Shown here piece by piece: positions 1 through 10,060 of a stretch of DNA of 64,000 nucleotides. The notes below the pieces were generated by a model. The model did no database searches. It was given only the letters and a program-made list of their open reading frames with translations, and had not been told where the DNA came from. The position numbers and the translations under genes are program-made. Each line of letters starts with the position of its first letter. Position 1 is the stretch's first letter. The stretch is from Myxococcota bacterium (GTDB lineage: Bacteria; Myxococcota_A; UBA9160; SZUA-336): assembly GCA_965247115.1 (NCBI GenBank), contig CBDFGR010000003.1, forward strand, positions 800,001 to 864,000, read 5' to 3'.

Positions 1-224
1 TCCTCAGTGGTCTCGGGAACCTTCAATGCAAGGGAAGCCAGATGCTCGCAGTCCTCTCTGCGCATTGGAAAGCGCAACTCGATCTCGTTCCGCTGGGCCA
101 CGAACCAAAGCGTCCTGTCATCCAATTCGAATCGGAGCGTCTCGACGTTCAACGGAAACCGCACCATCCCCTCGGGACCATGAAAGAATGAGGGGAAAGG
201 AGAAGAAGGAGGCATGCGCTTCAT
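1..224 (-). CDS. Phage hypothetical protein, runs off the left edge (MKRMPPSS...LRFELDDRTLWFVAQRNEIELRF...)
   Basis: ATG at 224 overlaps the stop of 221..538 (ATGA); frame open to position 1 by manual translation. Confidence 0.45.
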   Translation of the reverse strand, partial: MKRMPPSSPFPSFFHGPEGMVRFPLNVETLRFELDDRTLWFVAQRNEIELRFPMRREDCEHLASLALKVPETTE

Positions 225-538
225 AGCGGCCTCCGCACCCACCACCGGATCTCCATGCCCTGTTGGGCGTCACGTCGAATCGGCGCGTTCCCATCCACGT
301 ACTTCGAGGTGTCTGCGAGCTCGGGAAGCCTCCGACCCATGACGTACCGAGAGATCCCCGACAGTTGAGAGAGCCGTCGCGAGCTACGGCCCGGCCAGCG
401 GACCGCCGCCTCATAGCACTCACGACGCTGCGTCTGGGCCTGCCCCGATCGCTCCACCCGACGGGCAGCAAGCTTGGACGAGTCGTGGTTTGACTTACGG
501 GCGAGAGCGTGAGGGCCGAACAGACTCTCTTGCCTCAT
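221..538 (-). CDS. Phage winged-HTH DNA-binding protein
   Basis: 'SSKLAARR...SSRRLSQLSGISRYVMGRRLPELAD' pattern typical of small phage wHTH proteins; ATGA-coupled start. Confidence 0.7.
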   Translation of the reverse strand: MRQESLFGPHALARKSNHDSSKLAARRVERSGQAQTQRRECYEAAVRWPGRSSRRLSQLSGISRYVMGRRLPELADTSKYVDGNAPIRRDAQQGMEIRWWVRRPL

Positions 539-812
539 GCAGCGGCTCTTTCCGCGTCTTCGCAGCCAGGAGCTCGAGCTGTAGAAGCGGCGTCACGTAG
601 TCCAAGCGCGTGACCATGATGGCGATGGGGAGAACGGCTGCGGGGAGCCGTCGGCGCCCGTCCGCTCGCAGCCAGTGGGAGACGTTCGTGAGGGCCGACT
701 CTACGCTGCCCTCCCAAGAAAAGGCTGCGCGGCACGCGAGGGCAAAGTGCAACCAGGTGTCGGAATCGTCCAACATCTTCCGAACGGCACGCTCGATTTC
801 GACAGTTTCCAC
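495..812 (-). CDS. Phage regulatory protein, possibly CII-like
   Basis: GAGGT SD 8 nt before GTG; helical 105-aa protein downstream of cro in the early operon. Confidence 0.55.
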   Translation of the reverse strand: METVEIERAVRKMLDDSDTWLHFALACRAAFSWEGSVESALTNVSHWLRADGRRRLPAAVLPIAIMVTRLDYVTPLLQLELLAAKTRKEPLHEARESVRPSRSRP

Positions 813-1380
813 TGGGGGTTACCTCACTTTCGCCCCCACGAAGTTTCTGTTGGCCGTACTTGGCCCTACTCGCGCGTAAGAATGAAGTCCGATGCTTCCG
901 ACCACCCACCCCTCGTGTAGAATGCTTGGTAGCTACACCGAGACAGGGGCGGGGGAGAGAACTATGAACAGCAGAAGAATCGTTGCCCTCTGCGTGATCC
1001 TCTCGACGATCGGCTGCGTGAATCTCAGACAGCGCGACCGCGAAACCCTCCGAGACATCGAGCGCTACGACCTGAATCCCACGGAGATTCAGATCAAGAA
1101 CGCCGGTCTCGCAGGTGGCCTCGGGATCATATCTCCGGTCTGCAACTGGTATCTCGCATACGGCACGCACCAAACCGATCAGATCCTCGTGGGTTTTCTG
1201 AACCTGCTGACCTGGCCTCTCAGTGTTATCTGGGCGATTCCGCAGTGCGCGGCGGACGCCTTGACGCTGAACAAGCTTGAGACCATCGACTACTACGAAG
1301 ACGATCGTGACGGCATTCGGGAGTTCGCTGCTGCACGTGAACGCTACGAAGGGTCGCACCGGGACGAAGAGTGACCTCAC
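535..1380 (-). CDS. Operon-strand ORF spanning the inverted lipoprotein gene (possible bridge ORF)
   Basis: GGAGGGGG SD before GTG at 1380; GTGA overlap with 1377..1928 and ATGA overlap with 221..538; product not recognisable. Confidence 0.3.
   Translation of the reverse strand: MRSLFVPVRPFVAFTCSSELPNAVTIVFVVVDGLKLVQRQGVRRALRNRPDNTERPGQQVQKTHEDLIGLVRAVCEIPVADRRYDPEATCETGVLDLNLRGIQVVALDVSEGFAVALSEIHAADRREDHAEGNDSSAVHSSLPRPCLGVATKHSTRGVGGRKHRTSFLRASRAKYGQQKLRGGESEVTPSGNCRNRACRSEDVGRFRHLVALCPRVPRSLFLGGQRRVGPHERLPLAASGRAPTAPRSRSPHRHHGHALGLRDAASTARAPGCEDAERAAA
964..1374 (+). CDS. Prophage accessory lipoprotein/membrane protein, inverted relative to the cro operon
   Basis: GGAG SD; signal peptide with lipobox MNSRRIVALCVILSTIG-C; two hydrophobic segments resembling a TM2-like arrangement. 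Confidence 0.75.
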   Translation: MNSRRIVALCVILSTIGCVNLRQRDRETLRDIERYDLNPTEIQIKNAGLAGGLGIISPVCNWYLAYGTHQTDQILVGFLNLLTWPLSVIWAIPQCAADALTLNKLETIDYYEDDRDGIREFAAARERYEGSHRDEE

Positions 1381-1928
1381 GCCGCCCCCTCCGCTGCGGC
1401 AGTGACGAGAGTGAGGGATGCATGCAACGCCGGTAGAAGGCCGCCTTTACGATGAGCCTCGCAAACCTCTTGATAGGCATTGCTGCCGCGCTCGGCGCGC
1501 TTCTCGCTGCCGGGGGAGCGATCGCCAGCGCTATCCTCATACGGAAGTCGCACCGCGCGGCTACGATCGAAGATCGGCAACCCGTCCTCGAGACTACGCT
1601 GATCCGCTATCGCGAGCCGAACGTCGCGAAGGTCACGATTCGGGTTCGGAATTGCGACCGAGAACGAATCAACTTTGTCCGTCTCGAGGTCGTAAGCCCA
1701 GAGTCGGTGCGCTTCTTCGATTTCGACACCGACCCGTTCGGTCGTCCACAGCCACACGGGGAGCCCCACGACTGGGTACATCCGAGCTGCAGTATCGAGC
1801 CAGCCGACTATGAAGATCGAGAGTTCCTTCTTCAATGGACAGGCGAAGAACTCGCGCCAACCCGGGTTGAGCTTGTCGCATATTTCGATAGTCGCGCCGC
1901 GTACATCGAGAAGACAGGGGCGGGTCAC
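1377..1928 (-). CDS. Operon-strand ORF spanning the inverted membrane-anchored gene (possible bridge ORF)
   Basis: GTG overlaps the cro stop (GTGA 1925-1928); ends AAAEGAA, which encodes the SD of the next ORF. Confidence 0.3.
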   Translation of the reverse strand: MTRPCLLDVRGATIEICDKLNPGWREFFACPLKKELSIFIVGWLDTAARMYPVVGLPVWLWTTERVGVEIEEAHRLWAYDLETDKVDSFSVAIPNPNRDLRDVRLAIADQRSLEDGLPIFDRSRAVRLPYEDSAGDRSPGSEKRAERGSNAYQEVCEAHRKGGLLPALHASLTLVTAAAEGAA

Positions 1929-2033
1929 GGAGAGCGCTCGACTCGTTCGGAGTGCTGGTCAGCGCCGAACGGCGGCCCGCTCCTGAGTAGGTCTTCCGGA
2001 GTGATACCCAGGGTTGCTAGTTGGTCTCGATAA
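1452..2033 (+). CDS. Prophage accessory protein with N-terminal transmembrane helix and beta-rich domain (inverted)
   Basis: LLIGIAAALGALLAAGGAIASAILI followed by RK; alternating beta-strand pattern; 3' end overlaps cro antisense. Confidence 0.6.
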   Translation: MSLANLLIGIAAALGALLAAGGAIASAILIRKSHRAATIEDRQPVLETTLIRYREPNVAKVTIRVRNCDRERINFVRLEVVSPESVRFFDFDTDPFGRPQPHGEPHDWVHPSCSIEPADYEDREFLLQWTGEELAPTRVELVAYFDSRAAYIEKTGAGHGERSTRSECWSAPNGGPLLSRSSGVIPRVASWSR

Positions 2034-2188
2034 AGATCGATGAGCCTGACCATGATCCGCCGACTCATCGCGTTTCGCCCCGTTTCGTACATCGTCACGG
2101 CGGCCGGATCCACGCCCAGTTTTGCCGCAAGAGCCGCTTGGGTGATGCCGAGCGTCTGCCTGAGACGCTTCAGCGGATGAGAACTCAT
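1925..2188 (-). CDS. Cro-like HTH_XRE regulator
   Basis: LKRLRQTLGITQAALAAKLGVDPAAVTMYETG is a canonical HTH_3 motif; divergent from the cI-like gene. Confidence 0.85.
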   Translation of the reverse strand: MSSHPLKRLRQTLGITQAALAAKLGVDPAAVTMYETGRNAMSRRIMVRLIDLYRDQLATLGITPEDLLRSGPPFGADQHSERVERSP

Positions 2189-2196
2189 AAGCACAC

Positions 2197-2225
2197 ATTA
2201 CAACTCATGATGGTGGCGGTGTCAA
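2197..2225 (-). promoter_or_regulatory. Sigma70 promoter for cro (TTGACA-17-TGTAAT), overlapped by a candidate operator
   Basis: Minus strand TTGACA (2225-2220), 17-nt spacer, TGTAAT (2202-2197); inverted repeat ATGGTG/CACCAT at 2210-2215 and 2227-2232. Confidence 0.7.
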
Positions 2226-2271
2226 TCACCATGTACCAAGCTCTGCGGCCTTAGCTAATCTCTGCTTACTG

Positions 2272-2784
2272 ATGGCTCGACGCATAAAGCAACGCAGAGA
2301 GATTCCGACTTTTGGGCAGGAACTCAAAGAAGCTCGCGAAGCCCTGGGGCTGACCCAGGAGGAATTCGGCGATGCAGTCGACATCTCCCAGTCAGCCGTA
2401 TCGCAGTTGGAGAGCGGGAAGAACGAAGCCGCTGTCGGAACGAAGTTCAAGATCTTCGAGTTTTTGTCTGCGCGAGCGGACTTCCTGAAAGAACGCGGAC
2501 TCGACTACAGGACGGCCATCTCCCTCAACATGAAGAAGGACGCCCCCGAAGTCTATGAGTCGCTGCAGAAAGTACTTAGGGACCAGGCCCGAGCGGTAGC
2601 CGAGCATCTGATCGACGAGATCGGAGCTAGCCGGGTGATCACTCTCGCGTTTGTACCCCCAGACGAGCTCTCCAATTGGATCGATACCCATGAGGAGGCG
2701 AACTACAGGGAGGAGCAGGCGTATCAGCTCTCTAAGGACCTCTCACTCGGGCCATCACCAAAAAAGAAGCCAGAATCCGAATAG
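2272..2784 (+). CDS. cI-like HTH_XRE repressor
   Basis: LKEAREALGLTQEEFGDAVDISQSAVSQLESG HTH motif; divergent from cro; no S24 peptidase motif seen. Confidence 0.85.
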   Translation: MARRIKQRREIPTFGQELKEAREALGLTQEEFGDAVDISQSAVSQLESGKNEAAVGTKFKIFEFLSARADFLKERGLDYRTAISLNMKKDAPEVYESLQKVLRDQARAVAEHLIDEIGASRVITLAFVPPDELSNWIDTHEEANYREEQAYQLSKDLSLGPSPKKKPESE

Positions 2785-2826
2785 GCGGCTTGACCGTGTC
2801 TCTTATTTTACGTAATTATCACTTAT

Positions 2827-3291
2827 ATGCGCGGGGCAACTCTCGACCCGAGGCAGCGTCCTCTCCCTGACCGTCTCGCCCAGCTGGACTCTCTGCACCT
2901 GGACAGGGGTGTCTCCTCGAGCTTCGACGAAGGCCACTGCGCACTCGAAGTGGTCGCCTGGCTCGCAGGAGAGGAGCACAGCGACCATCCGCAGTGCACG
3001 AGTACCGCGGTTGGAGCCTTCGTCCGCTGCTGGAATGACGACCTTTCAGACGAGGATCGGGACCGTCTGCTCAAGCCACTGCTCCCCCGCCTTGTGGGAT
3101 CGGCAGGAGATTCCGACACGGAGATCGCCCGCTCCTACCTAGCCCTCGACTGGCTCTGTCGAATCTATACACCCGCATGGCTAGACCTCGTAGAAAGCCT
3201 GAAACCTCATGCCGCGAAGCTGCGTGGACTCGGCGAGATCACGGACCTCGATGTCCACGTCCAGTCGGAGTGCGACGAGTGCCGGCGCTAG
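2827..3291 (+). CDS. Truncated paralog of the Ala-rich repeat phage protein (N-terminal domain only)
   Basis: About 92% nucleotide identity to 4314-4721 by manual alignment; frame intact; lacks the repeat tail. Confidence 0.7.
   Translation: MRGATLDPRQRPLPDRLAQLDSLHLDRGVSSSFDEGHCALEVVAWLAGEEHSDHPQCTSTAVGAFVRCWNDDLSDEDRDRLLKPLLPRLVGSAGDSDTEIARSYLALDWLCRIYTPAWLDLVESLKPHAAKLRGLGEITDLDVHVQSECDECRR
2840..3250 (+). repeat. Direct repeat copy 1 (411 bp)
   Basis: Matches 4314-4721 with about 31 substitutions and one 3-bp indel (manual count). Confidence 0.95.
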
Positions 3292-4289
3292 AAGAGCTCC
3301 GATTGTCGCGGCATTCGGTGCTCGATCACCTCTGTGACCGTGCGGGAGAGATGGAGTTTGCCCTCCCCGTCCACCGATTGCTCGACGCTCATACGGACTC
3401 GGAGCTGGTCTCCACTTCGGAAGGGCTCGCGCTTAGTCACCTGTGTGACAAAGCCGGGATCTTCCATCTTGACCAAGAAGACATTGGCACCATCGGAGAC
3501 GCGCCACTGATAGCCGCGCCCAGAGATGTCTGGCTGGAGAATCTCCAAGACCTGAACCACCTCATAAGCTGCTTCTTGTGCAGCAGCTATCTGTCGTGGG
3601 CCACCCTCAGTAATCCTCGCGTAGTCGGCAGCGTCCAAAGATTCGACGACTTCACTGCCTTCCATTGCTTGGAAGAGTTCGACTCCTTGGCGAGCAAGCG
3701 GCTTCAACACCTCGTCCAGTGCTGTTACGGTCGTCGTGTCGTTGTACAGGTTTCGCACGTTTCGATGGAGCCGCAGCGTGCGTCCGTCCGGCGCAGTGGC
3801 CTCAATCTCTTCATCAATCTCGACGTATTGCATCTGCTCTGCCTTGCCTACTGTCTTTACAAGACTAAGGAGACCACTTGCAACCGAGCCAGACTTCTTG
3901 ATGAACCCCAGTGTAGTCAAGAGTTGGTTCGCGTCCGACCCCATCAGTGTGTTGACAATCCCGGCGATGTCCAGAACGAGCGAGATATCGAAAGACCTAG
4001 CTCTAACATCTGCTCGCATTCGAACGGTAGCGGCCGTCTCTCGACCATTGATGAGCAGATTTGTCCGCTCACAGATATCGCCCACAGCCTGAAGAGTCGG
4101 TGCCAGCGCGCGAACATCCATTTCGCCAGCCTCAAGTTCTGGCCCGGTGTAAACCAAGCGCAGTACGGCTTCGCTCATCGCGCTACGTCCTCCTGTCCGG
4201 CTGATATCTCTCAGGGGGATAGCGGGCCGACCGGGTCTAGCGGTCGGCCCGCAACAGACTCTAGCACTCAACTACAGGAGATAGTGTAG
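3279..4289 (+). CDS. Operon-strand ORF spanning the inverted 296-aa gene (possible bridge ORF)
   Basis: GGAG 8 nt before GTG 3279; stop-free across the whole inverted gene; ends 2 nt before ATG 4292. Confidence 0.3.
   Translation: MPALEELRLSRHSVLDHLCDRAGEMEFALPVHRLLDAHTDSELVSTSEGLALSHLCDKAGIFHLDQEDIGTIGDAPLIAAPRDVWLENLQDLNHLISCFLCSSYLSWATLSNPRVVGSVQRFDDFTAFHCLEEFDSLASKRLQHLVQCCYGRRVVVQVSHVSMEPQRASVRRSGLNLFINLDVLHLLCLAYCLYKTKETTCNRARLLDEPQCSQELVRVRPHQCVDNPGDVQNERDIERPSSNICSHSNGSGRLSTIDEQICPLTDIAHSLKSRCQRANIHFASLKFWPGVNQAQYGFAHRATSSCPADISQGDSGPTGSSGRPATDSSTQLQEIV
3288..4178 (-). CDS. Inverted prophage accessory protein (296 aa), function unknown, possible defence or moron gene
   Basis: AGGAGG SD before ATG 4178; globular sequence LRLVYTGPELEAGEMDVRALAPTLQAV... 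with an OB-fold-like C-terminus; more A/T-ending codons than its neighbours. Confidence 0.85.
   Translation of the reverse strand: MSEAVLRLVYTGPELEAGEMDVRALAPTLQAVGDICERTNLLINGRETAATVRMRADVRARSFDISLVLDIAGIVNTLMGSDANQLLTTLGFIKKSGSVASGLLSLVKTVGKAEQMQYVEIDEEIEATAPDGRTLRLHRNVRNLYNDTTTVTALDEVLKPLARQGVELFQAMEGSEVVESLDAADYARITEGGPRQIAAAQEAAYEVVQVLEILQPDISGRGYQWRVSDGANVFLVKMEDPGFVTQVTKREPFRSGDQLRVRMSVEQSVDGEGKLHLSRTVTEVIEHRMPRQSELF
4222..4252. promoter_or_regulatory. Perfect 12-bp GC-rich hairpin between divergent starts
   Basis: GCGGGCCGACCG-ggtctag-CGGTCGGCCCGC. Confidence 0.6.
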
Positions 4290-4291
4290 AG

Positions 4292-5257
4292 ATGCCCGCT
4301 CCCGCCCCTTCCCCTCTCGACCCGAGGCGTCCTCTCCCCGACCGTCTCGCCCAGCTGGACGCTCTGCACCTGGACAGGGGTGTCTCCTCGAGCTTCGACG
4401 AAGGCCACTGCGCGCTCGAGGTGGTCGCCTGGCTCGCAGGGGAGGAGCACAGCGACCATCCGCAGTGCACGAGTGCCGTGGTCGGAGACTTCGTCCGCTG
4501 CTGGAATGACAACCTTTTAGACGAGGATCGAGACCGTCTGCTCAAGCCCCTGCTCCCCCGCCTCGTGGGATCGGAAGGAGATCCCGACACGGAGCTCGCC
4601 CGCTCCTACCTAGCCCTCGACTGGCTCTGCCGGGTCCATACGCCCGCATGGCTGGATCTCGTGGAGAGTCTGAGCCCGCATGCCGCGAAGCTGCGCGGAC
4701 TCGGCGAGATCACGGACCTCGTTCGTGCAAGCGCGGCGCAGCCGATGATCCGTGCTGCGAGGGAAGCTGCGGGGGACGCTGTGAGGGACGCTGCGGAGGT
4801 CGCTGCGTGGATCGCTGCGAGGGAAGCTGCGGGGGACGCTGCGAGGGACGCTGCGAGGGAAGCTGCGAGGGACGCTGTGGGGGCCGCTGCGGGGGCCGCT
4901 GCGAGGGACGCTGCGAGGGACGCTGCGAGGGACGCTGTGGGGGCCGCTGCGAGGGACGCTGCGAGGGACGCTGCGAGGGACGCTGTGGGGGCCGCTGCGG
5001 GGGCCGCTGCGAGGGACGCTGCGTGGGACGCTGTGGGGGCCGCTGCGGGGGCCGCTGCGAGGGACGCTGCGAGGGACGCTGCGGGGGACGCTGCGGGGGA
5101 CGCTGCGAGGGTCGCTGCGGGAGCCGCGGCGGGGGCCGATGCGAGGGTCACCGCGTGGGACGCTGCGAGTGCCGCGCTCGAGCCGACCGTGCTCACGCTC
5201 CAGGATTCGGCACGCGATCTCGTTTGTCGAATGCTCGCGGTGGGGGAGTCCGCATGA
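4292..5257 (+). CDS. Phage protein with conserved N-terminal domain and (AARD/AAGA/AAWD)n tetrapeptide repeat
   Basis: AGGAG SD; HCALEVVAWLAGEEHSDHPQC...RCWND motif; long Ala-rich repeat. Confidence 0.85.
   Translation: MPAPAPSPLDPRRPLPDRLAQLDALHLDRGVSSSFDEGHCALEVVAWLAGEEHSDHPQCTSAVVGDFVRCWNDNLLDEDRDRLLKPLLPRLVGSEGDPDTELARSYLALDWLCRVHTPAWLDLVESLSPHAAKLRGLGEITDLVRASAAQPMIRAAREAAGDAVRDAAEVAAWIAAREAAGDAARDAAREAARDAVGAAAGAAARDAARDAARDAVGAAARDAARDAARDAVGAAAGAAARDAAWDAVGAAAGAAARDAARDAAGDAAGDAARVAAGAAAGADARVTAWDAASAALEPTVLTLQDSARDLVCRMLAVGESA
4314..4721 (+). repeat. Direct repeat copy 2 (408 bp)
   Basis: Matches 2840-3250. Confidence 0.95.
4754..5170 (+). repeat. Tandem array of about 34 degenerate 12-bp units (consensus GCTGCGAGGGAC)
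   Basis: Directly visible; variants GCTGCGGGGGCC, GCTGTGGGGGCC, GCTGCGTGGGAC. Confidence 0.95.
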
Positions 5258-5288
5258 TGCGCCGTGCCGAGCGGGCCCGGAGGTCACG

Positions 5289-5516
5289 ATGCGACTGGAG
5301 GAGATCGTGAAGCGCCCTACGATGCGCGCGCGGAACCGTCGCGAGCTCGCGCACGGTCGCCGCGTTGCCCCGACGCCCGACGTGCCGATCGATCGCGCCC
5401 TCCTCGGACCTGAGCGCTGTGTCCTGTGCCGGGAAGAGGCCGCCGACGACATCACGGGCCTTGACGACAAGGGCGTGTGTCTCACCTGCCGAGCGGCCGC
5501 ACGGCTGCGGTTATGA
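5289..5516 (+). CDS. Small phage protein with CxxC...CxxC zinc-finger motif
   Basis: CVLC and CLTC; GGAGG SD; ATGA overlap with the next gene. Confidence 0.6.
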   Translation: MRLEEIVKRPTMRARNRRELAHGRRVAPTPDVPIDRALLGPERCVLCREEAADDITGLDDKGVCLTCRAAARLRL

Positions 5517-5737
5517 GCATCGAGATTATCGAGAGCCGGGCGCACCCCACGATGTGCGCGATGTACTGCACCACCTCCGACGTAGCCTTCGGGCCCGTGT
5601 TCACGTCCCATGAAGAGGCGGAGCGGTTCATCGCCTATTGCTGGCTCCAGACGGGCGATGACCCTCGGGGCGTCGAAGGGTGCGTCCTAGAGCGCCTGGT
5701 CACGGAGATGCGAAAAGAAGAGCCATGCGCCCTTTGA
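5513..5737 (+). CDS. Phage hypothetical protein
   Basis: ATGA-coupled start; MSIEIIESRAHPTMCAMYCTTSDVAFGPVF. Confidence 0.65.
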   Translation: MSIEIIESRAHPTMCAMYCTTSDVAFGPVFTSHEEAERFIAYCWLQTGDDPRGVEGCVLERLVTEMRKEEPCAL

Positions 5738-5895
5738 TAGTCGCGCCCAAGCCCTTCCCGCGCGTCCCGCAAGACCTCCGCGAATTGCTCGCGGAAATCG
5801 ACCTCTATCTCGCGCAGCGAGAGCGTCAAGCGCGGCTGGAACGGCCGCAGCTCCGCGACCTGCGCGCACGAATCCAACGAGAACTCACGAAGTAA
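5725..5895 (+). CDS. Small helical phage hypothetical protein
   Basis: Fills the gap in the operon; amphipathic helix. Confidence 0.55.
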   Translation: MRPLIVAPKPFPRVPQDLRELLAEIDLYLAQRERQARLERPQLRDLRARIQRELTK

Positions 5896-5907
5896 AGGAG
5901 AGATGCC

Positions 5908-6705
5908 GTGAGCATGTTAGATCAGGTCACCACAGGAAGAACGATCCGGCCCCCGCGGATCGTCATTCATGGCAGAGGAGGAGTCGGCAAGACGACCTTC
6001 GGCGCGAGTACGCCGAATCCGATCTTCCTGCCTGCAGAAGAGGGACTCGGCACGCTCGACGTGCCTCATGTTCCCATTCCCACGAGCTACGCCGAGATCC
6101 TCGAGACGATCACGGATCTGCAACGTCAGGAGCACGTCTACCGAACCCTCGTCATCGACACGATCGACCACGTCGAGCCTCTCGTCTGGGAGGAGACGTG
6201 TCGTCGCATGTCCGAGGGGGGGCGGAAGACGTACGAGCACGTCGAGGATTTTGGGTATCAGAAGGGCTACCTGTTCGCCGATCGCGAGTGGACGCAGCTC
6301 TTTCACGCGCTGGACGCGATCCGACGCGACCCCGGCATGATGATCGTCGTGCTCTCCCACAACGAGAGCAAGACGTTCGAAGATCCGGTGATCGGTCCCT
6401 ACGACCGCGTCACTCCGAAGCTCCACAAGCGAGCGAACGCGCTGCTCTACGAGTGGGCGGACATCGTCGGCTACCTGGAGATCCAGCGAGCCACGATCGA
6501 GAAGGAGGGCGCGAAGAGTCGGAAGGTGCGCACCAGCGCCACAACCGGCACGCGCGAGCTCTTTCTCGAAGACACCGGAGCCTTCATCGCGAAGAACCGC
6601 TACGGGCTTCCGATCCGCATCGAGGTGCCCCAGGCCAACCCTTACACCCCGCTCCGTGAAGCGCTGAAGTCGGCGCTCGGAGTCCAGAAGCAGGAGGCCG
6701 CGTAA
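5908..6705 (+). CDS. Sak4-like AAA_24 ATPase (phage single-strand annealing protein)
   Basis: Walker A GRGGVGKT, Walker B LVIDTID, EWADIVGY and AKNRYGLP motifs. Confidence 0.9.
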   Translation: MSMLDQVTTGRTIRPPRIVIHGRGGVGKTTFGASTPNPIFLPAEEGLGTLDVPHVPIPTSYAEILETITDLQRQEHVYRTLVIDTIDHVEPLVWEETCRRMSEGGRKTYEHVEDFGYQKGYLFADREWTQLFHALDAIRRDPGMMIVVLSHNESKTFEDPVIGPYDRVTPKLHKRANALLYEWADIVGYLEIQRATIEKEGAKSRKVRTSATTGTRELFLEDTGAFIAKNRYGLPIRIEVPQANPYTPLREALKSALGVQKQEAA

Positions 6706-7209
6706 ATGCCACGCATCGGAGCAGCACTTCACGACGTAGAGGACAACGACATGCCGAGAGGAAGCTGGGTCGCTCTTGAGTCCGGCAAGTACCCGTTCAT
6801 GATTACCGACAGCGAGTACAAGCCGACGAAGAGGGGAGACGGGATGTGCTTGCACCTCACACTGCAGTGCATCCACCCAGATCACACCCGAGTAGAGCTG
6901 CGCGACTTTCTGACGCTCGAGCATCCCAATCCAGACACGGTCCGAATCGCGAAGGGTCGGCTGAAGCAGATCGGACTGGCCTGCAAGGTCAGGAATCCCG
7001 ACTTCATCCAGGACAGCGAGGAGCTCCACAACATCCCGTTTGTCGCCAGCGTCTCGAAGGAAGAGGCGGAGGATCCGAAGTACGGAGATGTGGACGGCTA
7101 CGAGAACCGGATTGCCAAGTACAAGCGGATCGACGGCAACGCCCCGATGTCCGAGCCACTGCCAGAGCAGTCGCAGCCTACTCGGGCCTCCGGGGACATC
7201 CTCTTCTGA
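6706..7209 (+). CDS. DUF669-like phage ssDNA-binding protein
   Basis: LESGKYPFMITDSEYKPTKRGDG motif, acidic tail ending DILF; follows the Sak4-like gene. Confidence 0.8.
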   Translation: MPRIGAALHDVEDNDMPRGSWVALESGKYPFMITDSEYKPTKRGDGMCLHLTLQCIHPDHTRVELRDFLTLEHPNPDTVRIAKGRLKQIGLACKVRNPDFIQDSEELHNIPFVASVSKEEAEDPKYGDVDGYENRIAKYKRIDGNAPMSEPLPEQSQPTRASGDILF

Positions 7210-7943
7210 TGGCCGAGCTCCCCCGCATCCGCAGTCCGCAGCCCCAGGTCGCCGACCGGATCTTCCGCGCCCTTGAGAGGCGGGAGGCCGATCGTCCGCG
7301 GAGCGGAAACCTCACCATGAGCGGCATCGGAGAGTGCGCTCGCCACCTCTGGGCCGAGCGAAACGAGCACTCGACGCCGAAATCCAGGCCAGGCCGGGTG
7401 CTCGCGACCTTCGAGTACGGAAACGCGACCGAGTCCCATGTGATCCGGCTCCTCCGCCTCGCGGACTACCTGATCGGGGCGGAGCAGCGTCGCGTCACCT
7501 GTGATCTCGGCGATGGACTCACACTGCGCGGCCGGATCGACGGAACGATCCTCCTCGGCAAGAAATATTCCGAACGGCTGGAGGCGCTGCTCGAGGTGAA
7601 AAGTGCGAAGGCGTCGCAGTTCGAGGAGTGCAAGGCGAAGGGCTACGAGAAGTGGAATCCGAAGTACGCGGACCAGCTGCAGATGTACATGGGCGCGGGA
7701 GGCTTCCACATCGCCCTTGCCTTCGTCTATTGCAAGGACATCTCCGAGCCCTACCCGGAGAAGATCCGCTTCGAGCCAGAGCGCTACGAGGCCCTGAAGG
7801 CGAAGGCACGTCTGATTCTCACCTCCGAGGAGCCGCCCAAGCGCCCCGACGAGGCGACATCCCAGTTCTGCAAGTTCTGCAAGTGGTGTGACGCGAACGA
7901 GTGGTGCTGGTCGCCCGTCGCGGAGACACGCTTCGACGACTAA
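7209..7943 (+). CDS. Cas4-like PD-(D/E)XK exonuclease with putative 4Fe-4S cysteines
   Basis: TGATG-coupled start; GECARHLW, GRIDG..LLEVKS, QLQMY, CKWC...C. Confidence 0.85.
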   Translation: MAELPRIRSPQPQVADRIFRALERREADRPRSGNLTMSGIGECARHLWAERNEHSTPKSRPGRVLATFEYGNATESHVIRLLRLADYLIGAEQRRVTCDLGDGLTLRGRIDGTILLGKKYSERLEALLEVKSAKASQFEECKAKGYEKWNPKYADQLQMYMGAGGFHIALAFVYCKDISEPYPEKIRFEPERYEALKAKARLILTSEEPPKRPDEATSQFCKFCKWCDANEWCWSPVAETRFDD

Positions 7944-8045
7944 GGGGAAGGGCTGTGGAAAGGAAGAATCGTCGCTGTCAGAGAGTCGGAGAGGGTTCGA
8001 ACCCTCAAAGAGCGTCGCGCCGACAGCAAGACGGGGCCTATCGAG

Positions 8046-8135
8046 ATGACCGTGTTCTGGCTTGGTCTCGGGGTCTTCCTCGCGCTGTTCTGTGTTGCGG
8101 CAATGAGCAAGCTATGGGCGCTGGTGCCGTGGTGA
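8046..8135 (+). CDS. 29-aa hydrophobic peptide MTVFWLGLGVFLALFCVAAMSKLWALVPW
   Basis: Manual translation; single TM helix; ends 1 nt before the integrase ATG. Confidence 0.4.
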   Translation: MTVFWLGLGVFLALFCVAAMSKLWALVPW

Positions 8136-8136
8136 G

Positions 8137-9351
8137 ATGACTTCATCTGTCCTCAGCCTTCGCCGCGAATTCACTACCCGCGCCCTGCTCGGACAGGGTA
8201 TACGGGTAGAGATGGCGCGCGATCTGTTCAATGTCCGACAACGCAAGGACTCGGGAGCTTGGTACGTCGATTGCCGGCCCTACGGGCGCATCCAGTGGAT
8301 CATGGTCGAGGAAGTCGGGAAGAAGCCTCTAGACGAGCAGATGGCCCACATGCTGCTTGCCTGGATCAGGGCAGAGATCGCGGGCGGAAAGTCTCCGAAA
8401 GAGGCTGTAGACCCCTATCTCCCGCGCCCGACAGCCCTCGTCCGAGATCGCCTGCCGGCCTGGCTTGAGATGATGAGCGACCAGGTCGAACGGGGGGATC
8501 GTAGCCCCACCTACCTGCGCGAGCTCGTGCGCTACGCGAAGCCGAGCGGCCACTTCTCGCCACTCTTCGAGGTCTCGACCTACGGGATCTCCTACGGCCT
8601 CATCGAGGACTGGACCAAGATCCTGGCCGATCGAGGCTTGGGGCAAAAGACCAGAACGAACGTCGTCGGTGCCTTCCATTCCTTCCTTGGCTGGCTGGTC
8701 AGTCGCGAGGAGATCTCAGCGGTCCCGAAGTTTCCGCCGCAGCCCAAGACCGTCCATCGCCCTCATATCATCCCGCCCGACGTACAGGACGCGATACTCA
8801 AGGAGATCCCCGAGCAAAAGCGCGGGGCCTTCATAACGTCTGTCGAACTCCTCCTCCGGCCTGGTGAGGTTCGCGCGCTCAACGTCGAGAACTACGACCG
8901 CCGAACCAGGGTCCTGTGCGTCGCCCACGCGATGAAAGGCCCCCGCAGAGACGCGCCTCGCAGGGAGACGAAGGAGGGCGACATCCGCTACCGCGAAGCC
9001 TCAGATCGCCTCCATGCTTGGATCGAGCGGTACGTGCCACTCCTGGCCGTCTACGAGGGCGAACGGCCGCTCTTCGCGAACCCGGATGCCAAGGCCGCGC
9101 TCAATCCCAGCAAGCGCTGGACACATGATCCGCTTCGAACGAACTGGAACGAAGCAGCGACACGAGCGGGGCATCCTGGCGTGCAACTCTACGAGGGCAC
9201 GAAGCACTCGACCGCGACTGCGCTGCGTCGCGCTGGTGTTCCACTCGATGTGATCCAGGCCGCTGCCGGACACAAAGACGTGCGCTCGACCGAGCGCTAC
9301 GCGCAGTTAGCCGACGATGTAGTCGCCGACGCCCTCAGGAAACGACGGTGA
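8137..9351 (+). CDS. Tyrosine recombinase/phage integrase (alternative start 8212)
   Basis: LLRPGEVRAL (Arg I), YEGTKHS box II variant, GHKDVRSTERY (His, Tyr); adjacent to att. Confidence 0.92.
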   Translation: MTSSVLSLRREFTTRALLGQGIRVEMARDLFNVRQRKDSGAWYVDCRPYGRIQWIMVEEVGKKPLDEQMAHMLLAWIRAEIAGGKSPKEAVDPYLPRPTALVRDRLPAWLEMMSDQVERGDRSPTYLRELVRYAKPSGHFSPLFEVSTYGISYGLIEDWTKILADRGLGQKTRTNVVGAFHSFLGWLVSREEISAVPKFPPQPKTVHRPHIIPPDVQDAILKEIPEQKRGAFITSVELLLRPGEVRALNVENYDRRTRVLCVAHAMKGPRRDAPRRETKEGDIRYREASDRLHAWIERYVPLLAVYEGERPLFANPDAKAALNPSKRWTHDPLRTNWNEAATRAGHPGVQLYEGTKHSTATALRRAGVPLDVIQAAAGHKDVRSTERYAQLADDVVADALRKRR

Positions 9352-9429
9352 ATCTGTCACAGGTATGCCACGGGAGCTGGGAGATGCCGAAAACTGCTAA
9401 ACACGACAGTGAGTTACGCCCCGGTGTTG

Positions 9430-9456
9430 GGGTTCGATTCCCGTGCGCTTCCGCCA
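9430..9456 (+). other. Prophage att site: 3' end of tRNA-Sec (selC)
   Basis: GGG-TTCGATT-CCCGT T-arm half, 8-nt acceptor strand GCGCTTCC, G discriminator, CCA; no upstream tRNA body. Confidence 0.8.
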
Positions 9457-9466
9457 GCTGGCCTTG

Positions 9467-10060
9467 CTACGCCGGCAGCTCGTAGCCGATCGCGGCCTCG
9501 ATATCACACGTACGCTGCACGGCGGGACGCGCCATCATTCGACGGTAGTGTTCGTCCAGGTTCGGGAACTCACCAGGCGCCGGATGAAGCGAGTTCCGGA
9601 AGCGCCAGTAGAGGCGGAAGAGGTGGATATCCGCAATCGAATAGTCGTCCAGCGCCCACTCGCGGGGTCCGAGTCGCCGGTCCGTGATGCCGAACACAGC
9701 ACGGCAGCGGTCGATCCCCTGGCGCCGTGCAGGGTGGACGGTCGCGGCAATGAACGACATCCACGAGATTACCTGCGCCTCCGCTGCGACGTCGCCGTTC
9801 GGGAGCAGAGCAGCTTCGGGGAAGCGCCTGGCCAGGTAGAACAGAATCGCCGCAACCTCGGTCAGCGGGCGGCCATCTACCAGCAGGGTCGGTACCTTGC
9901 CCTCGGGGTTCAGCGCGAGAAACTCGGGCGCTCGGTTCTCATTCTTGGCGAATGAGATCGGCCGGCTCTCGAACGGGACACCGATCTCGTGCAGCGCGAT
10001 GTGCGGCGCCATCGAACTGGACCCTGGCGCGAAGTAGAGCGTCAACGTAGGCGTCGGCAT
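9467..10060 (-). CDS. Glutathione S-transferase family protein
   Basis: LYFAPGSSSMAPHIALHE, LNPEGKVPTL, YSIADIHLF. Confidence 0.92.
   Translation of the reverse strand: MPTPTLTLYFAPGSSSMAPHIALHEIGVPFESRPISFAKNENRAPEFLALNPEGKVPTLLVDGRPLTEVAAILFYLARRFPEAALLPNGDVAAEAQVISWMSFIAATVHPARRQGIDRCRAVFGITDRRLGPREWALDDYSIADIHLFRLYWRFRNSLHPAPGEFPNLDEHYRRMMARPAVQRTCDIEAAIGYELPA

Follow-up and report, generated by a model that had tools for sequence, protein, structure and literature searches.

Coupled antisense frames across inverted cargo in a Myxococcota prophage early operon, candidate bridges for ribosome passage

The coupled chain and its inverted cargo

The window analysed here is a stretch of 64,000 nt from a Myxococcota bacterium (positions 800,001 to 864,000 of contig CBDFGR010000003.1, termed C3 below) with a genome of 5.17 Mb and 65.6% GC. 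Positions 1-9351 of the window constitute the early region of a lambda-like prophage. On its minus strand a cro-like gene leads into a chain of translationally coupled open reading frames (ORFs), which runs antisense through two inverted cargo genes before it reaches ordinary operon genes. We propose that the long antisense ORFs of this chain are bridge frames, which selection for the passage of ribosomes, rather than for protein products, has probably kept open; this reading builds on sequence comparison. The features relevant for the chain are the following.

1925..2188, minus strand: cro-like XRE helix-turn-helix gene (Pfam HTH_31, E 9e-11; HTH_3, E 4e-10)
1377..1928, minus strand: bridge frame A; its 183 codons lie antisense and in register to the membrane cargo, and it ends in a relic cro tail
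535..1380, minus strand: bridge frame B, 281 codons, its stop overlapping the ATG at 538
495..812, minus strand: cII-like gene, GTG start, GAGGT Shine-Dalgarno sequence (SD) at 825-821
221..538, minus strand: early gene receiving bridge frame B via ATGA (phrog_1123, E 0.003)
1..224, minus strand: next early gene, coupled via ATGA; from here the chain goes on past the window edge toward the replication genes
964..1374, plus strand: cargo 1; the product is predicted to be a lipoprotein, and its unnamed family counts 144 representatives at E<=0.001, of which 59 reach <=1e-10
1452..2033, plus strand: cargo 2, with a predicted membrane anchor at the N-terminus (hydropathy of 2.29 over residues 6-24) and a predicted beta-sandwich

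As stated in the original prediction, the chain is held together by four exact 4-nt overlaps on the minus strand, GTGA at 1928-1925 and 1380-1377 and ATGA at 538-535 and 224-221, the last of which links two ordinary operon genes. Each of the two long ORFs shares its codon register with a plus-strand gene, 1928..1377 (183 aa) with 1452..2033 and 1380..535 (281 aa) with 964..1374, and the overlapped parts of both genes are free of TTA, CTA and TCA codons. The prediction had contrasted this with cI and the integrase gene. The counts are correct (3 and 5 such codons), but the contrast was selective, since neighbouring genes have none either: the inverted gene at 3288-4178 (297 codons), ssb (168) and cas4 (245) contain 0 and sak4 contains 1. 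In GC-rich genomes the antisense frames called shadow ORFs are stop-free because TTA, CTA and TCA are rare. The caveat that in-register antisense ORFs are common at high GC is borne out, as they are open at this length in 44-48% of the host genes. Genome-wide, in a self-trained set of about 3900 genes, the three codons are missing from the last 137 codons of 1553 out of 3213 genes and from the last 159 of 1317 out of 3020.

Could the chain have arisen without selection, by a combination of GC-rich shadow ORFs, a start left over from an ancestral cro-cII junction and a block of sequence that fixes the register? For the window by itself this would suffice. The codon-shuffling null that had been suggested as a check, in which the cargo is recoded synonymously and non-coding DNA is resampled, gives P 0.019-0.020 for the window chain before allowing for its post hoc choice. 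On the window alone the case for the chain is weak and indistinguishable from chance. Contigs from four runs of one sample, possibly the source, have no listed substitution over 1-2880; one low-depth contig among them carries a 1-base deletion at 951.

Cargo 1 is predicted to be a lipoprotein from its N-terminal hydrophobic stretch and Cys. Some members of its family (P0009, P0010) are fused to a bacterial SH3 domain, a hint at a role in the cell envelope. In the phage collection neither the lipoprotein nor the cII-like gene has a match, and two weak lipoprotein hits (L003, L004) were left out. A comparison of cargo homologs inside and outside phage operons had also been suggested. One homolog, 44% identical and located in genome G046 in a neighbourhood that does not look like phage, has its antisense frame closed by one stop; a single case proves little.

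Cargo 2 has no homologs among 1097 candidates, and among 225 genomes only its own contains it. Its low-confidence model (predicted local distance difference test, pLDDT, 58) consists of a beta-sandwich that stops at residue 157, near position 1925, and a fold search with it returned generic beta-sandwiches only (best Z 6.5, root-mean-square deviation 3.1, 99 residues aligned). Lacking a stop at the junction, the gene continues for 36 codons through antisense cro (1925-2033), and this final part is likely read-through. On the opposite strand, frame A, a singleton cluster, is the ORF that the gene caller of the protein collection chose, with an Atlas score of 0.90 and an Atlas recognition value of 1728, under the mark of 2300. 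The codon scores of cargo 2 and frame A are a tie (8.3 vs 7.8). The N-terminal hydrophobic helix, the beta-sandwich model and the Atlas score of cargo 2 (0.94) favour the plus strand for 1452..2033 without settling the matter. Gene callers may label bridges as hypothetical genes and drop the real cargo, which seems to be the case for 1452-2033. The cro-like gene, divergent from cI, is annotated as a gene in the same collection.

Frame B crosses, in this order, the antisense of the lipoprotein gene, the promoter region of the cargo and 92 codons of the cII-like gene, and its codon score is -45.5. The cII-like gene had been overlooked in the original prediction. It lies within the distal third of frame B, on the same strand in another frame, and shares a 44-nt overlap with the gene 221..538. 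Its search yields 11 proteins at E<=0.001, with homologs in two sibling prophages of the host genome itself (S1 and S2) and in six other genomes. In its own frame the ratio of non-synonymous to synonymous changes (pN/pS) is 0.44-0.66, i.e. the gene is under purifying selection. 812..495 is a real gene. The name cII-like is a label, as the link to the CII family is weak: phrog_101 (CII-like) is matched by 3 of the 14 members of the set, with a best E of 0.007; the model (pLDDT 85) resembles an XRE-type fold (Z 7.5) and YdaT (Z 5.4), and Foldseek with this model gave no match at E<=0.001. By position, a small helix-turn-helix gene after cro as for lambdoid CII is present in all 10 loci described below.

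Recurrence of the layout in nine further loci

Comparison loci were gathered through the cII-like gene, a criterion that is blind to bridging. Nine of them have a cro gene upstream, namely the siblings S1 and S2, one locus each in six other genomes of the class (G094, G070, G075, G109, G150, G193) and the metagenome contig L047. Chains were counted as strict if they consist of xTGA, TAATG or TGATG junctions only. An antisense gene between co-oriented operon genes is present in 10 of 10 loci; in the nine other loci one or two inverted genes lie between cro and cII, and they are different in each. The cro stop overlaps a start codon (ATGA or GTGA) in all 10 loci. The strict chain that begins there reaches the cII start or goes beyond it in 9 of 9 other loci, 10 of 10 with the window, over bridges of 0.3-2.1 kb, whereas the two alternative frames downstream of the cro stop fall short of the cII start in every one of the 10 loci. 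The suggestion in the original prediction that ribosomes are kept on the early mRNA is thereby strengthened as far as the layout is concerned, which recurs with different cargo. The far ends of the bridges vary.

G150: ATGA at cII
G109: TAATG at cII
G094: stop 5 nt inside cII
G070 and G193: in frame into cII
G075: 58 nt inside cII, after four links across 2.1 kb
S1, S2 and L047: past cII; in L047 by GTGA at the gene after cII, like the xTGA of the window

The constant reach to the cII start, combined with a variable far junction, is better explained by protection of the transcript than by a fixed link to cII. G094 and G193 have another slot downstream of cII; in G094 it is bridged, with ATGA at either end, and in G193 the frame is open over 286 codons. 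Where the bridge is in frame with cII (L028 505-1860; L043, flipped, 673-1737), two products are possible, a long fusion protein and a shorter cII initiated at an internal SD. In G109 (L030 99-1827) the operon after cII reaches the integrase within two genes, all coupled, so that a different type of element carries the same bridge.

Two null models yield 1.86 (host codon use) or 1.47 (prophage codon use) expected strict chains in nine loci, compared with nine observed, and the products of the single probabilities are 1.3e-9 and 7e-11, respectively. Openness at the rate set by codon use, as for neutral shadow ORFs, thus does not describe these loci. Without S1, S2 and G075, whose middle link may be a real gene, the product is 1.1e-5. 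A third null based on third-base frequencies of the cargo was discarded because it overstates TTA, CTA and TCA. As a control, 399 arrangements of gene, convergent gene and gene were found on the host chromosome; 55 have a coupled start, and 8 of these are bridged, a share that speaks for chance in single cases but differs from 9 of 9 with a probability of 9e-7. The in-register cargo contains no TTA, CTA or TCA in 1670 codons, where 9.4-13.8 would be expected (8.0-11.7 without the window). Three out-of-register cargo genes, with 2 such codons in 219, are crossed nevertheless, and so are non-coding spacers. The mirror test, from the cargo stop onward through antisense cro, found no coupled starts.

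The register of the window is connected with remnants of an older module, and the following elements were identified here.

1369..1399, minus strand: relic 3' end of an older cro, 31 bp, reading ..AAEGAA stop
896..923, plus (cargo) strand: putative promoter-like element, TTCCGA, 16 nt, TAGAAT
941..953, plus strand: 13-bp direct repeat, copy in the 5' leader of the cargo (2 matches in 64 kb, 0.01 expected)
1912..1924, plus strand: 13-bp direct repeat, copy adjoining the cro stop, in the same reading phase in frames A and B

The 31-bp block is identical to the coding end of cro at 31 of 31 positions in S1 and 30 of 31 in S2, and more loosely similar in a further sibling, S3; no match to it was found in viral or metagenome contigs. 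From it come GGAGG and the GTG of position 1380, as well as the cargo stop (1372-1374) on the opposite strand. Because cargo stop, SD and GTG are all inside the block, the register is automatic in the window, S1 and S2, a point in favour of chance. The strong SD with GTG at 1380 that had been highlighted is thus present, but it is inherited cro sequence common to the sibling prophages. Consequently, the junctions do not carry the argument in the way originally assumed; what remains constant is a frame that is open all the way from the cro stop to the cII start or further. The promoter-like element and the cargo-strand leader are common to the window, S1 and S2. TCCGAC and TAGAAT are invariant in the three aligned sequences, although a consensus promoter scan did not list the element, and the indels across the three promoter regions total multiples of 3.

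These indels, the crossing of out-of-register cargo and of non-coding spacers, the exact far-end junctions in unrelated loci, the deficit of antisense stop codons and the nine chains in nine loci are all difficult to reconcile with an origin by chance, which is already disfavoured and which we regard as improbable.

Presumably the window's double link is a product of module exchange. A new cro and the membrane cargo were likely fused onto an older module at the old cro tail, which would result in two links instead of one, and cro tails seem to serve as crossover points for such exchange. In S1 (L024 1835-1915) a second relic cro tail, of the S3 type, is located after cII and ends another inverted cargo. 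Among the comparison cro genes, 8 of 9 end in Ala-Ala and one in Ala-Ala-Gly; the present cro of the window does not, but frame A does. These ends may be a ClpXP-type tag or a by-product of an SD and a start embedded in the stop.

Several candidates were set aside. L044 is a response regulator; 11 weak cII hits (L014-L020, L022, L023, L080, L081) are opposite or wrong frames of host genes; L021 and L048 are duplicates of G070 and G094, and S4 is a duplicate of S3. S5 and S6 have no cro. The cII search in viral contigs gave one spurious locus (L005), and further searches of viral contigs were empty. Matches to a cro profile occur in 126 of 225 genomes. Of 20 with short frames that were checked, 19 are host regulators or toxin-antitoxin genes, and the one in G095 is cro-like but shows no sign of inverted cargo and lacks a coupled start; no chain was seen in any of the 20, barring 4 codons at a contig end. 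In G095 (L083, flipped, 1317-1508) an ORF with a 15-nt tandem repeat lies upstream of the cro-like gene and a primase-like gene.

Bridge products, regulation and prophage setting

The original prediction had left room for true antisense partner proteins. A precedent is gene 10 of Pseudomonas phage Fc02, which follows a ner/cro-like gene, lies opposite olg1, is expressed and excludes phages according to the part of PMC9936078 that was available. Frame A would be the best candidate, as it was called as a gene by the collection and has a codon score and an Atlas score close to those of its cargo. For the bridges in general, however, the evidence points the other way. Frames A and B have no Pfam or PHROG match and seven of seven other bridges scanned have no Pfam match. 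An all-against-all BLAST of the bridge products yielded two hits only, both in the shared promoter flank, and the products change with every cargo. Over cII, where stretches can be compared, the bridge frame has a pN/pS of 1.24-1.70, in contrast to 0.44-0.66 for cII itself. In all 14 genes compared the cargo has a higher codon score than the antisense frame in register with it, though for the membrane gene of the window the margin is narrow. Thus, no case was found in which both frames encode conserved proteins; frame A has no homolog for such a comparison. Partner proteins are therefore hardly to be expected, and the bridge frame appears, from these comparisons, to be conserved as a layout and not as a sequence.

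Alternatively, the frame could be selected and translated mainly as a regulator. Ribosomes passing over the cargo antisense and over the ribosome-binding site of cII would then silence the cargo or damp cII and tilt the decision to lysis. In the window, S1, S2 and L047 the bridge is open for 92-109 codons past the cII start (chance 0.04-0.18 each, with the window, S1 and L047, whose cII genes are homologous, not being independent). The gene after cII has no coupling to the cII stop in the window, S1 and S2, while its start lies at or close to the end of the bridge in two of them, the window and S2. Two of the comparison cargo genes carry a superinfection immunity domain (PF14373), and antisense genes inside phage operons switch with the life cycle in the system described in the accessible part of PMC11087260. 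A candidate antisense promoter is located upstream of the cII-like gene. On the other hand, the bridge stops at the cII start in G094, G109 and G150, where it would feed cII, and reads into cII in G070 and G193; moreover, antisense transcription alone can silence the cargo, for which an open frame is not necessary. We consider a mainly regulatory frame unlikely, although somewhat less so than partner proteins or chance.

The remainder of the early region resembles that of lambda-like phages. The plus strand carries genes for a cI-like repressor (2272..2784, Pfam HTH_3, E 7e-12), Sak4, SSB, a Cas4-like nuclease and an integrase (Pfam, PHROG), and genes for the replication initiator, a DnaC-like loader and the terminase are on the minus strand beyond the left edge of the window. 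No antiterminator family is among the PHROG matches of 39 scanned ORFs, but small N-like proteins can escape and this is no evidence of absence. Likewise, no Rfam match at gathering score was found over 1-9500; an undescribed RNA could escape such a search.

The cI-side operon contains an inverted gene as well (3288-4271, minus strand, phrog_3243), with no TTA, CTA or TCA in 297 codons. The antisense frame in register with it (3177-4289, plus strand, 370 codons) stops 2 nt before the ATG at 4292. After the upstream stop at 3291 there is no coupled start, the nearest TTG being 12 nt further on. The inverted gene is bracketed by a 411-nt duplication (92%) of the start of the 4292 gene, at 2840-3250 and 4314-4721, of which the copy at 2827 is truncated. 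The 4292 gene has a 12-nt tandem repeat and is found again at no fewer than six further sites of the genome. The host genome contains at least six related prophage regions whose immunity modules are mosaic (C1:1-14000, C2:268000-277000, C3:1-9000, C3:1.214 Mb, C3:2.603-2.612 Mb and C3:2.636-2.643 Mb); several are at contig ends, one is broken by insertion sequences and one has no cro-cI.

Ribosome passage and known systems

How would an open frame across inverted cargo be of use to the phage? Ribosomes that finish cro would restart at the cro stop and cover the otherwise untranslated insert. Untranslated RNA is a target of Rho in bacteria with coupled transcription and translation (PMC13323073, in the portion available), and the coverage would guard the mRNA against Rho-dependent termination, or against decay, upstream of cII and the replication genes. 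Where the bridge ends, ribosomes would be transferred to cII, continue into it or bypass it and go on to the gene that follows. Any insert or mutation closing the frame would have a polar effect on lytic growth and disappear, and the slot would filter acceptable cargo in this way. We infer ribosome restart and Rho protection from the layout, its recurrence, the codon avoidance and a host rho gene above the family cut-off.

The following points weigh against ribosome passage. Bridge translation and polarity are deduced from the layout of the sequence, and the available text of PMC13323073 makes no mention of transcription-translation coupling in this group. The spacers are not C-rich overall (C 0.27-0.36, G 0.29-0.35), hence there is no obvious site for Rho loading. 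This class is rich in long shadow ORFs, and the loci, though not their cargo, share ancestry. In the null models the cro junction was held fixed because its start may stem from an ancestral cro-cII junction, and the codon models were drawn from one genome. If a generous reinitiation at any ATG, GTG or TTG within about 10 nt is admitted, the null rises to 4.2 of 9 with a product of 1.4e-4, or 7.4e-3 on the six most independent loci. The bridge of S1 ends without a junction. In S3, which has no cII homolog, the frame after cro closes at 69 codons without a strict junction, with an ATG 17 nt upstream of its stop; a second cro-like tail there opens a frame of 227 codons through the cargo, which ends 21 nt before the next gene. 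The truncated S6, without cro, still has the frame open over the compared part of the cargo.

Nevertheless, the bridge layout is a real and repeated feature, likely under selection, as judged from the comparison of the loci. A more far-reaching version is possible but tentative: an exchangeable slot with a translational entry rule, which would accept a backward insert in any register only if a coupled frame without a product carries ribosomes across. Junk translation would then replace an N-type antiterminator, the opposite strand would shape the codons of the cargo, and the end of the bridge (feeding, fusing with or bypassing cII) would tune lysis and lysogeny. If ribosome passage is the correct explanation, it provides a rule by which accessory or superinfection-immunity genes can be taken into an essential operon without breaking it, and the debate on selection of long antisense ORFs in GC-rich bacteria becomes testable. 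It would also be a case of a bacterial ORF selected for being translated and not for its protein, which so far has been argued mainly for narnavirus reverse ORFs.

In the literature within reach of our searches, which took in a minority of subscription papers, no account was found of coupled frames bridging inverted, exchangeable cargo of phages; the sources below were available in part. In its gene layout the slot is a noncontiguous operon, as known from Staphylococcus aureus prophages (ith/tha, 80alpha; PMC11087260), where an antisense gene likewise interrupts a phage operon close to the lysis-lysogeny switch. There it has a promoter of its own, for which the window offers a candidate, and can be anti-phage. 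These operons are described as a transcriptional arrangement; the main text does not contain the word Rho, and its available part describes no coupled open frame. In Fc02 (PMC9936078), the phage example that comes nearest, a gene after a ner/cro-like regulator overlaps an opposite-strand exclusion gene in the early lytic operon. As a conserved pair of functional proteins it does not match the bridges. The product of gene 10 has exclusion activity of its own, phage Ps56 carries a homolog, and the term translational coupling is absent from the available text, while the antisense product here differs in every locus and shows no constraint.

The proposed mechanism is similar to that of eta of phage P4, whose translation is coupled to the preceding gene and keeps transcription from ending prematurely before the genes behind it (Forti et al. 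1999, as summarised in PMC10111431). The loci described here share an ORF coupled to the upstream gene, known from sequence layout by the cro stop overlap in 10 of 10, but eta is a conserved gene containing the immunity RNA and not the antisense frame of exchangeable cargo. In IS900 the opposite-strand ORF hed spans the whole insert and borrows a translation start from the host; according to Doran et al. 1997, as summarised in PMC8141618, IS900 is one fixed insertion sequence and the function of hed is unknown, in contrast to many unrelated cargo genes in one phage slot. Ambigrammatic narnaviruses (PMC8316113, in part) keep a reverse ORF without known homologs open opposite a real gene, with translation as its proposed function, and the in-register avoidance of TTA, CTA and TCA (0 in 1670 codons) is found here as well. 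They differ as eukaryotic RNA viruses in which the whole segment, with its RNA-dependent RNA polymerase gene, is overlapped from end to end, without operon, coupling or Rho, whereas the present element is a DNA prophage with integrase and terminase. Unlike mere shadow ORFs, the frame described here begins within the preceding stop codon, runs over non-coding and out-of-register sequence and arrives at the following operon gene in all 10 loci. The bridge likely belongs with the ORFs whose function is translation itself.

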